Notes: a model not told the origin generated them from the letters alone. DNA of 64,000 nt from Candidatus Latescibacterota bacterium (GCA_965248355.1 OZ252098.1:2880001-2944000); one strand, 5' to 3'; counted from the first letter of the stretch, positions 46,964 through 50,164 are shown. A program made the numbers and translations.

Positions 46964-48049
46964 ATGCCCGACCCCATCGCCCCCCAGCCTCCCGGCAAGA
47001 GGGGCCGCGCCGCCGGCTTCAACCCCCCCAACCGCTTCGAGCCCCTGCACCTGGAGCCCGACCCGGCCGAGCCCGGCGAGGAGGGCTTTCAGGAGCGGGT
47101 CCCCACCAGCTACCTGATCGACGCCAGCCGCTCGATCCTGGCCGAGAACGACTCGCCCGACGTCGGCTTCCGCTTCAGCCTGAACCCCTACCGCGGCTGC
47201 GAGCACGGCTGCGTCTACTGCTACGCCCGGCCCAGCCACGAGTACCTGGGGTTCTCGGCGGGGCTCGACTTCGAGACCAAGATCCTGGTCAAGGAGCAGG
47301 CCCCGGAGCTGCTGGAGGCGGCCCTGCGCAAGAGGTCGTGGCAGCCGCAGGTCGTGGCCCTGTCGGGCAACACCGACTGCTACCAGCCGGTGGAGCGGCG
47401 GCTTCAGCTCACGCGGCGGTGCCTGGAGGTGTTCCTCAAGTTCCGCAACCCGGTGAGCCTGATCACCAAGAACCACCTGGTCACGCGCGACCTCGACATC
47501 CTTGAGAGCATGGCGGCCCTCGACCTGGTGCACGTGACCCTGTCGATCACCAGCCTCGACCGCCGGCTCACGGCGGCCATGGAGCCGCGCACGTCGCGGC
47601 CCGAGCGGCGGCTGCAAGCCCTTGAGGAGCTGTCCCGGGCCGGCGTGCCGGCAGGGGTCAACGTGGCGCCCCTGATCCCGGGGCTCAACGATTCGGAGGC
47701 GCCGGCCATCCTGGAGGCGGCGGCGGCGCGGGGGGCGCGCTGGGCCCACTACATCCTGGTGCGCCTGCCCGGGGCCGTGCGGCCCCTGTTCCTGGACTGG
47801 CTGCAGCGCCACTACCCCGACCGGGCGAGCAAGGTCGTGCACCGGCTCGAGGCGGTGCGGGGGGGACAGCTCTCCGACGCCCGCTACGGCAGCCGCATGC
47901 GGGGCGAGGGGGAGCTGGCGGAGCTGGTGAGCCGGTTCTTCGAGATCGCCAAGAGGCGGCACGGGCTGGACCGGGATGGGCACGAGCTGGCCGTGCACCG
48001 GTTCCGGCGCCAGGGGGCGGATCAGCTGGAGCTGTTCGGGGAGGGGTGA
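46964..48049 (+). CDS. PA0069/Rv2578c family radical SAM protein (SplB-like)
   Basis: [44 protein letters not shown]-terminal QLELF. Confidence 0.93.
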   Translation: MPDPIAPQPPGKRGRAAGFNPPNRFEPLHLEPDPAEPGEEGFQERVPTSYLIDASRSILAENDSPDVGFRFSLNPYRGCEHGCVYCYARPSHEYLGFSAGLDFETKILVKEQAPELLEAALRKRSWQPQVVALSGNTDCYQPVERRLQLTRRCLEVFLKFRNPVSLITKNHLVTRDLDILESMAALDLVHVTLSITSLDRRLTAAMEPRTSRPERRLQALEELSRAGVPAGVNVAPLIPGLNDSEAPAILEAAAARGARWAHYILVRLPGAVRPLFLDWLQRHYPDRASKVVHRLEAVRGGQLSDARYGSRMRGEGELAELVSRFFEIAKRRHGLDRDGHELAVHRFRRQGADQLELFGEG

Positions 48050-48089
48050 GGGCGGCTGCCCGGACTGCCCGGGGCCTCCCGGCGGCCTG

Positions 48090-48632
48090 TTGGCCCTCGC
48101 CCTGGCCGGGGGCCTGGTCGTCGTGGACGGTCCGCCCGGCTCCCTGCTGAACCGGCTGCCGCGGAGCCAGTGGCAGCAACTGCCCCGGGGCACCCCCGCC
48201 CCCGACTTCCAGCTGGCCGCGGTCGCAGGATCCGGACTGGAACTGGCCGACCTGAAGGGCCGGTCCTCGGCAGTCGTGTTCGTCACCACCACCTGCCGCT
48301 ACTGCAACGAGTTGAAGGCCAACCTGCTCGGCGCGGGGCTGCCGGACCTGGATGGGCGCCTGGTCTTCATCAACGGTCCCGACGACGGTCCGTCAGCAGA
48401 GCCGCCCGAGGACAGCGTCGAGGCGCGGATCCGCGACTTGTACCCCGTCCTTCAGGACACCACGGGAGAGACGTCGCTGGCGTACTACGCCGTCAGCGTG
48501 CCCACGGCCTACCGGCTCGACCCGGAGGGCACGGTGGCGGCGGCGGCCCGGGGCGTCGAGCCGGTCCAGGAACTGGTCGAGGAGCTGGCCCAGGCCGTGG
48601 CCTTGGACGAGGACTGCCGGTCGTGTCGCTAG
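48090..48632 (+). CDS. Membrane-anchored redoxin (TlpA/AhpC-like, CxxC); start uncertain
   Basis: GTPAPDFQL, CRYC, SVPTAYRLDPEG; the coupled GTG at 48046 is out of frame, so a frameshift is possible. Confidence 0.75.
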   Translation: MALALAGGLVVVDGPPGSLLNRLPRSQWQQLPRGTPAPDFQLAAVAGSGLELADLKGRSSAVVFVTTTCRYCNELKANLLGAGLPDLDGRLVFINGPDDGPSAEPPEDSVEARIRDLYPVLQDTTGETSLAYYAVSVPTAYRLDPEGTVAAAARGVEPVQELVEELAQAVALDEDCRSCR

Positions 48633-49675
48633 GCGATCCTGTCCTTTGGGTGGAGCTGGCGATGCTGTCGGCGCTGCTGACGGCCGGCCTCTGTGTCGCC
48701 TACACGGATCTCCGGTTCCAGCGGGTGCCGAACCGCTACACCTTGGGGCTGCTCGGCATCGGCGTGACCGGCCAGGTGGCGATGGTGGGACTGGGCGTGG
48801 GCGGCTGGAACCAGGTCGCAGGGACCCTGCTCCTGGGGCTGGGCGTGGCGCTCCTGATGATGCTGGCGGGGGTCTGGTCGCCGGGCGACGCCAAGATGTA
48901 CTGGGCGGCCGTGGCCGCCCTGCCGCCGAGCCTGTGCCCGGTGGGGAAATGGCTCTCCCTGGAAACGCCTCCGGCCGCTCTCATAGTCAACGCCCTGGTC
49001 GCCTACGTCGCAGTGCTCCTGGCGGTGGTGGCCTGGCGTCAACGGCCGTTGAAGACGGTCAAGGGAAACCGGGGGCCATGGCTGCAGGCCGCCGCCGGGC
49101 TGGGGGGCCTGCTCGGCTTGGCCCTGAGCTTCGCCCAGCTCGTCCTGAACCGGCCCCTGAGCTACCTGGAAGCCTTCGCGTTCCTCGTCGTGGGATACCG
49201 CCTGCTGGAGTGGGGCCTGAAGCCGGATAGGCGTCCGGTGGTGATGATCCCCGGGCTGGCGGCTCTCGCGCTGCTGGCCGTGTCGACCGGCGGCTGGAAG
49301 GACTATCTCCTGATCTGGGCTACGACGTGGCTGCTGGAGCTGGCCTTTCAGCAGGTACGGCACGGGAGCGGGCGGGCCTTCGGGTACGAAGTGCCGATAG
49401 GGCGGCTTCAGCCGGGGGCGATCCTGCGGCACCGGATGATCCTGGCCGGGGACGATGGGGCGGAGGTGATCTGGGAGGGCGGGGAGAGCCTCGATCGGGA
49501 AAGGGTCAACCTGCTGCAAAAGCGGACGGCCTCCGGCGACCTGCCCCGGAGGGTCGAGCTGGCGCGGGCCATGCCCTTCGTCCCCTTCCTCGTGCTTGGC
49601 GGGCTAGCCACCGCCGCCTTCGGCGGCCACTTGGCCCCGCCCTTGAGGGCCTTGCTCGTGTGGCTCAACGGATGA
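48623..49675 (+). CDS. A24-family (prepilin/preflagellin-type) aspartic peptidase
   Basis: AYTDLR..RVPN and PGDAK catalytic Asp motifs, multiple TMs, C-terminal MPFVPFLVLG. Confidence 0.85.
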   Translation: MSLGDPVLWVELAMLSALLTAGLCVAYTDLRFQRVPNRYTLGLLGIGVTGQVAMVGLGVGGWNQVAGTLLLGLGVALLMMLAGVWSPGDAKMYWAAVAALPPSLCPVGKWLSLETPPAALIVNALVAYVAVLLAVVAWRQRPLKTVKGNRGPWLQAAAGLGGLLGLALSFAQLVLNRPLSYLEAFAFLVVGYRLLEWGLKPDRRPVVMIPGLAALALLAVSTGGWKDYLLIWATTWLLELAFQQVRHGSGRAFGYEVPIGRLQPGAILRHRMILAGDDGAEVIWEGGESLDRERVNLLQKRTASGDLPRRVELARAMPFVPFLVLGGLATAAFGGHLAPPLRALLVWLNG

Positions 49676-49780
49676 ATTCGCACCCCCTGCGGCTGAGAGA
49701 GGAGGCATGTGGCGCACAGCAGGATGGAATGGAGGAGTCTCGGAATCAACGCAGTTCATTTCCTTACGGAGGAGTGAGTT

Positions 49781-50086
49781 ATGTTGAAGCGGTTTCGTAA
49801 CCTTGTGGGCGGCTTCATCGCCAGCGAGGACGGCGTCAGGCAGCAGGCGATCCTGCCCGTGGCCTGGGTCGGTGCCGTGATGATGGCTGGGGCCGTCGTG
49901 CTAAACATGCCCGACAAGGCGCAGGCCAGCACCTATTGTTGGGCGGGTGGGTGCCCCAACACGAGCCCCGCTGTCAACTGCAACTATGAGTGTCAGAACA
50001 GCAGCAGCTGCGAGCAGAATTGGGGCACATGCCTCTACTATGGTTCATCGGGGCTCAAGCGCTGCCGGTGTCAGGACCCGTCGTAG
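49781..50086 (+). CDS. Cys-rich precursor peptide: Flp-like leader plus 8-Cys defensin-like core
   Basis: GGAGGAG RBS; ..FIASEDG|, hydrophobic segment, AQA site, CxxxC..GxC..CxC. Confidence 0.8.
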   Translation: MLKRFRNLVGGFIASEDGVRQQAILPVAWVGAVMMAGAVVLNMPDKAQASTYCWAGGCPNTSPAVNCNYECQNSSSCEQNWGTCLYYGSSGLKRCRCQDPS

Positions 50087-50096
50087 TGCACCTTCG

Positions 50097-50164
50097 TGCT
50101 GATGCGTTGCGCGTCTGACGTGCATCAGCAAGATCCTGGGAGCGGGGGCATGGCCCTCGCTCCC
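50097..50164 (+). terminator. Two tandem GC-rich hairpins after the precursor gene (duplicated near 51234-51299)
   Basis: TGCTGATGC..GCATCAGCA and GGGAGCGGGG..CCTCGCTCCC; no strong U-tract. Confidence 0.45.

Follow-up and report, generated by a model that had tools for sequence, protein, structure and literature searches.

To our knowledge, the described substrates of the prepilin-type aspartyl peptidases of family A24 are confined to pilins, pseudopilins and archaellins, together with a small number of surface proteins of archaea. In archaea, class III signal peptides also occur on non-filament proteins, such as the sugar-binding proteins processed by PibD, and prepilin-type peptidases are further represented there by EppA and FlaK. 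Among bacteriocin operons, some include thiol-disulfide oxidoreductases, as that of sublancin does with BdbA and BdbB. Defensin-like peptides are known from bacteria as well: a survey of bacterial cis-defensins lists 74 peptides in five classes which, in the text accessible to us, come from Proteobacteria, Acidobacteria and Actinobacteria only, and no name in Gemmatimonad- or Latescibacter- occurs in its main text (PMC11561630). The actifensin locus, as presented in the accessible part of its description, combines a 32-residue leader with ABC transporters and a subtilisin-like protease, and the same part does not contain the words 'peptidase' or 'thioredoxin' (PMC6989792). Here we describe a locus in a stretch of 64,000 nucleotides (about 70% GC; hereafter the window) from a Candidatus Latescibacterota bacterium (GCA_965248355.1 OZ252098.1:2880001-2944000), in which the gene for a 101-residue, cysteine-rich peptide lies directly after genes for a thioredoxin-fold protein and an A24 peptidase. 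We give an even chance to the reading that these genes form a self-contained cassette which matures a small, disulfide-rich, exported peptide with a cysteine-stabilised alpha-beta (CS-alpha-beta, cis-defensin-like) fold. Judged by titles and abstract openings, with supplements outside the search, no paper was found in which a defensin-like or bacteriocin-like peptide is tied to an A24 peptidase; no paper came up on non-pilin substrates of prepilin peptidases, and on the same titles and openings nothing on defensins in Gemmatimonadota described the present combination.

The plus strand carries, in this order, a radical-SAM gene, a redoxin gene, the A24 peptidase gene and the peptide gene (Table 1). 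An initial annotation of the window had singled out the peptide open reading frame (ORF), and both the translation quoted there and the position of the ORF directly after an A24 peptidase and a CxxC redoxin were borne out; the start assigned to the whole feature, 48046, is the end of the radical-SAM gene and not an in-frame start. The ribosome-binding site ahead of the ATG, a GC content at in-frame third codon positions of 0.82 and the existence of 30 close homologues show that the ORF is a real, conserved gene. These homologues came from a word-seeded search, in which 30 of 32 candidates had E ≤ 0.01 and were 67-143 residues long (the close tier); a search seeded with distant members added 22 further proteins (the distant tier). 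A HMMER search with a family profile against 1.84 billion representatives, open to proteins of any length, returned 34 proteins at E ≤ 0.001. All 34 are 67-134 residues long, and therefore the leader is never joined to other cargo.

Genomic context was followed over the 64 kilobases (kb) of the window and about 20 kb of each of five related loci (L001-L005), all from one scan of species-representative genomes and belonging to metagenome-assembled genomes (MAGs) of Latescibacterota or Gemmatimonadaceae. Seven peptide genes (one each in the window, L001, L002, L004 and L005, and two in L003) were compared using tblastn and Pfam searches of the flanking ORFs. The A24 gene lies directly 5' of the peptide gene in all seven cases, counting a copy cut to residues 166-348 at the second L003 peptide and a frameshifted one in L002. 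The redoxin of the window, here called redoxin-2, precedes the A24 gene directly in six of the seven, being missing at the second L003 copy; in the five related loci its copies are 77-90% identical. A second, different AhpC/TSA redoxin with an SCPAC motif stands 5' of redoxin-2 in all five related loci, that is, at five of the seven copies, and is missing from the window as well as from the second L003 copy. On the 3' side, every peptide gene is followed by one to about ten genes for secreted, CBM9-like paralogues of about 310 residues, present as remnants only in L002. The SCPAC redoxin of the relatives and the CBM9-like arrays always found 3' of the peptide had been missed by the initial annotation. 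The synteny with A24 peptidase and redoxin genes that it had proposed to look for was seen, and its statement that the window holds no tad or pilus assembly genes stands: a Pfam scan of 56 window ORFs found no type IV pilus, Tad or type II secretion system family. Likewise, no pilus-assembly family was found by Pfam in 26 flanking ORFs of the five loci.

Since the peptide family is conserved and the order redoxin, A24 peptidase, peptide is repeated in five of five related loci, the arrangement exceeds chance. These observations support the view that the A24 peptidase and the redoxin are dedicated neighbours of the peptide and not members of a pilus locus. On one MAG chromosome three cassettes occur within about 30 kb, each with its own A24 gene or gene fragment. 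As a proxy for linkage, we asked how often a peptide and an A24 match had longest contigs of the same size; this was so for 11 of the 30 peptides of the close tier and 2 of the 22 of the distant tier, with pairs on contigs of only 1.8-4.5 kb among them, and the unmatched peptides say little because most pairs are lost from view once sequences are clustered at 90%. Both the redoxin gene and the A24 gene of L002 are split over two frames, and the 3' paralogue there consists of end fragments (L002:4675-6197), and the L005 peptide is without an in-frame N-terminal leader (L005:10001-10225); these defects reflect either decayed copies or assembly errors.

Alignments and hydropathy show that the precursor has three parts. 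The first is a leader, presumably cytoplasmic, with the family motif F..[SN]E[DEST]G, of which E[DEST]G is found in 44 of 52 full-length members. The second consists of a basic stretch, a hydrophobic segment (with the hydropathy peak of the precursor at residues 23-41), a helix breaker and an AQA site. The hydrophobic segment, beginning LPVAW, is nearly invariant, with L25, P26, A28, W29, V30 and A32 among the positions that do not change, and 51 of the 52 members show, after the helix breaker, the AxA-like -3/-1 pattern of a signal peptidase I site. The third part is a core that varies across the family and usually contains eight cysteines. The leader has a mean pairwise identity of 47% and the core one of 32%, or 19% when the shared cysteines are left out. 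A conserved leader, a variable core and several complete cassettes in one genome resemble, by analogy, what is seen in bacteriocin-type loci. The initial annotation had proposed processing in two steps, by the A24 peptidase and then by signal peptidase I; the E-x-G and AxA motifs fit this scheme, and it is less well served by the glycine being replaced or shifted in some members and by the polar residues that follow it.

The likeness to Flp prepilins lies in an acidic residue and a glycine ahead of a hydrophobic helix, as in the Flp leader motif. Unlike Flp or Tad pilins, the peptide has no Glu/Tyr at +5/+6, and has instead a polar spacer, an AxA site and a cysteine-rich globular core. The initial annotation had noted the missing pilin glutamate, and position +5 after Gly18 is indeed never Glu: the window has Ala there, and distant members have Arg or some other residue. 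None of 53 members matched the Pfam family Flp_Fap at E ≤ 10. Of the features of a class III signal-peptide protein, the +5 glutamate and, in the window and flanking ORFs, assembly genes were not found, and with the AxA site the helix would not be retained. A search with the leader motif over the window and the related loci returned the peptides themselves and one chance match, at 17233.

The core appears to be defensin-like. In the window its cysteines form the CxxxC (C67-C71), GxC (G82-x-C84) and CxC (C95-x-C97) motifs that had been annotated. A cysteine pattern, C..CxxxC..C..CxC, taken from the accessible text of the survey, where it was used to mine bacterial cis-defensins (PMC11561630), matched 49 of 61 family proteins as against 4.3% of shuffled cores; the 12 misses are mostly truncated or frameshifted entries, with a few full-length variants (P0002, P0040 and P0044). 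An AlphaFold 2 model of the core alone, built on a 53-row alignment, had a mean predicted local distance difference test score (pLDDT) of 86.8 and a predicted template modelling score of 0.65, with strands at residues 4-8, 32-38 and 43-49 and a helix at 19-24. The full-length precursor was modelled poorly (pLDDT 61.4), and its Foldseek list was similar to that of the core alone, only weaker. When the core model was compared with the PDB using Foldseek, each of the top 24 listed rows was a plant defensin, brazzein or a long-chain scorpion toxin, all of them members of the CS-alpha-beta superfamily. Searching PDB sequences with the family profile gave as best match the Arabidopsis defensin-like protein PDFL2.1 (E 0.026), aligned on the CxxxC, GxC and CxC motifs, followed by plectasin, brazzein and Ah-AMP1 at E between 2 and 5. 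Pfam gave weak matches to AtDEF-like in 6 of the 53 members (best E 0.0029), to Defensin_like in four and to Gamma-thionin in two. In all, five partly independent lines agree on a defensin-like core and none of them is statistically decisive; on the cysteine pattern, the topology of the model and the kinds of protein among the best matches, a CS-alpha-beta assignment seems reasonable. The check by AlphaFold and Foldseek proposed with the initial annotation therefore came out in favour of its defensin-like core as far as topology and kind of match are concerned, and short of significance in any single match.

Compared with the bacterial cis-defensins as they appear in the accessible text of the two papers (PMC11561630, PMC6989792), the present peptides are likewise small and predicted to be secreted, with the C...CxxxC...C...CxC pattern and a predicted helix pinned to a beta-sheet. 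They share with them, too, a conserved leader, a variable core and multiple gene copies. Unlike the peptides in that part of the survey (PMC11561630), they come from new phyla. They also differ in an extra cysteine pair, of which one member lies before CxxxC and the other between CxxxC and GxC, in cores that are not consistently cationic, and in a composite signal of 49 residues with an E-x-G leader. The ABC transporters and subtilisin-like protease of the actifensin locus, as far as its description was accessible (PMC6989792), are replaced here by an A24 peptidase and redoxins.

The start of the A24 gene was placed at GTG 48623 because of the comparison with homologues of 350 residues, and overlaps the stop codon of redoxin-2. 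Hydropathy analysis (threshold 1.4) suggests about seven hydrophobic segments and a soluble insert at about residues 230-310. We found 69 homologues, nearly all of about 350 residues, in two tiers of identity (76-90% and 40-51%), and most of them carry a precomputed PF01478 annotation. All 47 that were aligned are about 350 residues long, and in all 47 two aspartates are invariant, D27 in YTDL..RVPN and D87 in PGDAK (348-residue numbering); these are presumably the A24 catalytic pair, the second lying in a GxGD-like motif. A24 enzymes share the GxGD class with presenilin and signal peptide peptidase. By its PF01478 score and the two aspartates, the window protein can be classed as an A24 peptidase. 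No named A24 subfamily (PilD, TadV/CpaA, FlaK, EppA) fits by NCBIfam: only the archaeal EppA model was matched, in its C-terminal part, by 27 of the 47 members and at 21 bits, the cut-off being 450 (best E 2e-06). A PDB sequence search found no solved match for the protein, the only one returned being irrelevant (E 0.56). The peptidase thus belongs to a distinct long-form subfamily of about 350 residues without an NCBIfam equivalent, and the TadV/CpaA label of the initial annotation, which stands for a short type, is imprecise. JGI names two of the homologues 'Flp pilus assembly protein protease CpaA'. A predicted complex of the peptidase with precursor residues 1-52 (score 0.01, mark 0.32) speaks neither for nor against binding. 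A cysteine at residue 103 (same numbering), within LPPSLCP, is also invariant in the 47 sequences and may be of relevance given the adjoining redoxins.

Like TadV/CpaA, which acts on Flp prepilins, the peptidase is without the N-terminal domain of PilD and its gene adjoins that of its putative substrate; unlike TadV/CpaA, it has about 350 residues with an extra soluble insert, and no tad assembly genes lie nearby. The archaeal PibD, EppA and FlaK systems resemble the arrangement proposed here in applying a prepilin-type peptidase to proteins other than classical pilins and in tolerating polar residues after the glycine, and the partial match to EppA is a further point of likeness. They differ in that the genomes here are bacterial, in that the EppA match stays far below its cut-off, and in that the substrate here has a second site, of the signal peptidase I type.

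Redoxin-2 has a thioredoxin-like domain, a TCRYC motif, a C-terminal CRSC and, by hydropathy, a single hydrophobic anchor at residues 36-50. With its domain, CxxC and membrane anchor it has what would be expected of a TlpA/ResA-like protein; equivalence with a named family was not reached in NCBIfam (ResA, 33 bits against a cut-off of 170; StoA, 18 bits against 210). Its start is ambiguous, either the ATG at 47976, from which the ORF would share 74 nucleotides with the radical-SAM gene, or the TTG at 48090, the sole other in-frame start; homology to its relatives begins near 48081-48126. As in the sublancin type of operon, thioredoxin-fold enzymes are encoded beside a disulfide-containing secreted peptide. 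Those operons differ in removing the leader by an ABC transporter with a C39 domain and not by an A24 enzyme, and in the fold of the peptide.

Taken together, these features point to a new and plausible route by which bacteria might mature defensin-like peptides. The precursor would enter the inner membrane by its hydrophobic segment, its N-terminus staying on the cytoplasmic side. The long-form, GxGD-type A24 peptidase of the cassette, dedicated to this peptide, would recognise the F..SE(D/E)G leader together with the LPVAW helix and cut near the glycine, at the cytoplasmic face; signal peptidase I would then cut at AxA, freeing the core of about 52 residues and eight cysteines into the periplasm or beyond, where the membrane-anchored redoxin, or both redoxins in the relatives, would form or shuffle its four disulfides. 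What the analysis shows are the genes, their order and conservation, the motifs and the predicted fold; the two cleavages, their order, the role of the redoxins and any activity of the peptide are inferred. The target of the peptide could equally be the CBM9-like secreted proteins encoded 3' of it. A more far-reaching version, which we put forward tentatively and hold to be rather less than an even prospect, takes the A24 peptidase wholly out of filament biogenesis. It would then be the leader or signal-peptide protease reserved for a Sec-exported, four-disulfide defensin-like peptide, acting jointly with signal peptidase I in the manner of eukaryotic signal peptide peptidase, in a new bacteriocin-like system of Gemmatimonadota and Latescibacterota that extends the cis-defensins to these phyla with a new eight-cysteine framework and is possibly coupled to the CBM9-like proteins. 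As to the repurposing of pilin-processing machinery proposed in the initial annotation, the dedicated neighbours and the lack of a pilus locus agree with it, and cleavage by the A24 enzyme is the part that stays conjectural.

Several points weigh against a maturation cassette for a defensin-like peptide. The need for an A24 cut is unexplained if signal peptidase I frees the core anyway. The leader glycine is Ala, or is displaced by one residue, in at least three sequences, and six to seven polar or basic residues stand between it and the hydrophobic segment, a spacer unlike known A24 substrates or pilins. TlpA/ResA-like redoxins are usually reductants. The context is drawn from just five related loci. 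The window lacks the SCPAC redoxin, and over its first ~47 residues redoxin-2 is unlike its relatives, the N-terminus having been swapped by rearrangement; because of these two defects the cassette copy in the window may be impaired. As for the fold, Foldseek gave no PDB match at E ≤ 0.001, the best being weak (Ah-AMP1, E 0.44, TM 0.49/0.51; PDFL2.1, TM 0.57/0.55), all Pfam defensin matches are under their cut-offs, and an ESM Atlas search on the core gave no usable match. The net charge of the core ranges from -7 to +4, being positive in 21, neutral in 3 and negative in 29 of the 53 members, and neutral in the window; negative cores are atypical for membrane-active defensins. Because many cores carry no net positive charge, an antimicrobial action of the classical cationic kind is not implied, and the predicted mature peptides do not share the net positive charge that would mark an antimicrobial defensin.

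The alternative that survives best, unlikely in our view, is that the peptide is an ordinary small protein exported by Sec and signal peptidase I, with a long n-region, and that the A24-like protein has another substrate, serves as an immunity protein, chaperone or scaffold, or clears the leftover signal peptide in the manner of signal peptide peptidase. A canonical h-region, a helix breaker and the AxA site would suffice for export, the spacer after the glycine is unlike known A24 sites, and A24 enzymes fall into the GxGD class together with presenilin and signal peptide peptidase. Set against this, the n-region motif and the LPVAW helix are near-invariant while the core varies, which argues for a specific recognition partner, and the invariance of both aspartates in the A24 subfamily argues for catalysis. 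Nor was another substrate with the leader motif found in the window or the loci; the redoxins and the CBM9-like proteins have ordinary signal or anchor sequences.

It also seems possible, if quite improbable, that the cysteine-rich protein is an accessory subunit, anchor or inhibitor of the CBM9-like proteins, for example a disulfide-linked or metal-associated partner. The ~310-residue paralogues had no Pfam match, and were related to CBM9 through ESM Atlas look-alikes of paralogue 2 (scores 0.97, 0.96 and 0.94), in which PF06452 (CBM9_1) is annotated on 37%, 13% and 94% of the cluster members, respectively. Sixteen aligned paralogues have a Sec signal and an invariant histidine as the predicted first mature residue (HA/H-x-GDEIYPF, with the slash before that residue), a near-invariant C-terminal tail, EPSSW(G/A)RIKAAL, a DGDH(S/T)GG motif in all 16 and a C-x-x-C pair in 12. 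An N-terminal histidine after a signal peptide recalls the histidine-brace copper proteins. Partnership would be in keeping with the C-x-x-C pair and the histidine, with the often anionic cores, with the constant place of these genes 3' of the peptide gene across short gaps (16-85 nucleotides in L001 and the window), and with the seeming duplication of peptide and paralogue as a unit. Co-location by itself is, on the other hand, weak evidence of binding; the CBM9-like family is far larger than that of the peptide (62 to 1258 members per Atlas cluster), and the window has copies away from the peptide too, namely paralogue 1 and the fourth copy of Table 1. CBM9-like arrays are found in L001, L003, L004 and L005 (for example L005:10394-19449). 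Just 5' of the first CBM9-like paralogue of the window, the one at 41979-42884, lie an AhpC/TSA-thioredoxin-like ORF (38992-39396, plus strand, 54.7 bits) and an ABC ATPase gene (40602-41936, plus strand).

Still less probable is a minor pilin or pseudopilin-like subunit (Flp/Tad or another type IV filament) that is processed by the A24 peptidase and assembled by machinery encoded elsewhere: the F..SE(D/E)G leader and following helix, the adjoining peptidase with its two CpaA-named homologues and the limited span of genome in view would allow it, and it is opposed by the lack of a +5 Glu or an EY motif, by an AxA site that would cut off the very helix a pilin needs, by the failure of Flp_Fap to match, by the lack of any ATPase, platform or secretin gene in the window and flanking ORFs, and by an A24 gene for each cassette, up to three on one chromosome, where a housekeeping prepilin peptidase would be shared. 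The radical-SAM gene as a maturase of a ribosomally made, post-translationally modified peptide (RiPP) was ruled out, as it belongs to the PA0069 family and, small fragments aside, is not part of the L001, L004 and L005 cassettes (three of six neighbourhoods). The initial annotation's framing of the peptide as a RiPP class is not sustained either, since no core-modifying enzyme is conserved and only the peptidase and the redoxins are kept.

The window locus is rearranged. A remnant of a second peptide gene, 86% identical to 50044-50099, lies after paralogue 2, and the intergenic segment 50099-50164 recurs at 51234-51299 with its hairpin; because of this remnant and the repeated hairpin, peptide and paralogue appear to have been duplicated in tandem as one unit. 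The stem-loop that follows the peptide gene may act as a partial terminator or may stabilise the transcript; its second copy at 51273 was scored as terminator-like. A 97%-identical copy of the 5' region of the radical-SAM gene (47029-47299) is found 3' of paralogue 3 (52257-52495), and L003 holds a radical-SAM fragment joined to one of an A24 gene (L003:9163-9891). Cassette loci look like recombination hot spots. Farther off in the window, a Mutator-family transposase gene (5157-6428, plus strand; PF00872, 125 bits) lies in a stretch of lower GC (0.60). On the 3' side of the cassette there are genes for a BtrH_N/DUF4872 protein, weakly matched as a C39-like peptidase, and for an ABC exporter pair (54192-55712 and 61367-63885, plus strand); genes of both kinds are common in peptide-export loci. 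A large secreted protein that contains repeats of a HYDIN/ASH-type Ig domain (16909-19632, plus strand) and a 1028-residue S8 subtilase (35166-38252, minus strand) are unrelated to the cassette.

Table 1. Features of the peptide locus, in window coordinates unless a related locus is named
Feature	Position	Strand	Basis or remark
CBM9-like secreted protein, fourth copy	41979-42884		
CBM9-like secreted protein, paralogue 1	45768..46775	+	tblastn, alignment; 5' of radical-SAM gene
PA0069-family radical-SAM gene	46841-48049	+	NCBIfam 480 bits, cut-off 360
Redoxin-2, predicted thioredoxin-fold thiol:disulfide oxidoreductase (AhpC/TSA, TlpA/ResA-like)	47976..48632	+	Pfam AhpC-TSA 30.8 bits, cut-off 26
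Predicted A24-family aspartyl peptidase, long form, 350 residues	48623..49675	+	PF01478 31.3 bits, cut-off 26.5
Ribosome-binding site GGAGGAG	49768..49774	+	direct reading; 6 nucleotides 5' of peptide ATG
Peptide ORF, 101 residues	49781..50086	+	translation exactly as in the initial annotation
Putative cytoplasmic leader, precursor residues 1-18, MLKRFRNLVGGFIASEDG	49781..49834	+	family motif F..[SN]E[DEST]G; proposed A24 cleavage site
Precursor residues 19-49: VRQQ basic stretch, hydrophobic segment AILPVAWVGAVMMAGAVVL, helix breaker, AQA site	49835..49927	+	alignments, hydropathy
Eight-cysteine core, precursor residues 50-101, and stop codon	49928..50086	+	predicted beta-alpha-beta-beta (CS-alpha-beta, defensin-like)
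GC-rich 12-bp stem-loop between peptide gene and next gene	50138..50164	+	repeat; second copy 51273-51299
CBM9-like secreted protein, paralogue 2	50172..51101	+	ESM Atlas look-alikes, alignment; Sec signal peptide
Second peptide gene remnant, last 13 codons SSGLKRCRCQWPS and stop	51175..51217	+	86% identity (see text)
CBM9-like secreted protein, paralogue 3	51237..52250	+	tblastn, alignment; likely true start Met29 near 51321
SCPAC redoxin of the related loci	L001:7613-8269, L002:4106-4597, L003:4823-5887, L004:7706-8263, L005:7527-8183		

What is new here is a defensin-like family in new phyla, a new cysteine framework and an unprecedented, if unproven, maturation partner; bacterial cis-defensins themselves were already known. 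If the proposal is true, a dedicated A24 peptidase for a soluble defensin-like peptide widens the substrate range of these intramembrane aspartyl proteases, and the system would parallel, in bacteria, the way in which signal peptidase and signal peptide peptidase are paired in eukaryotes. The compact four-gene cassette of two redoxins, peptidase and precursor may possibly be usable for making disulfide-rich peptides. Two little-studied phyla and a new eight-cysteine framework would join the short list of bacterial cis-defensins, with a bearing on the debate over a bacterial origin of eukaryotic defensins that is taken up in the accessible text of the survey (PMC11561630).

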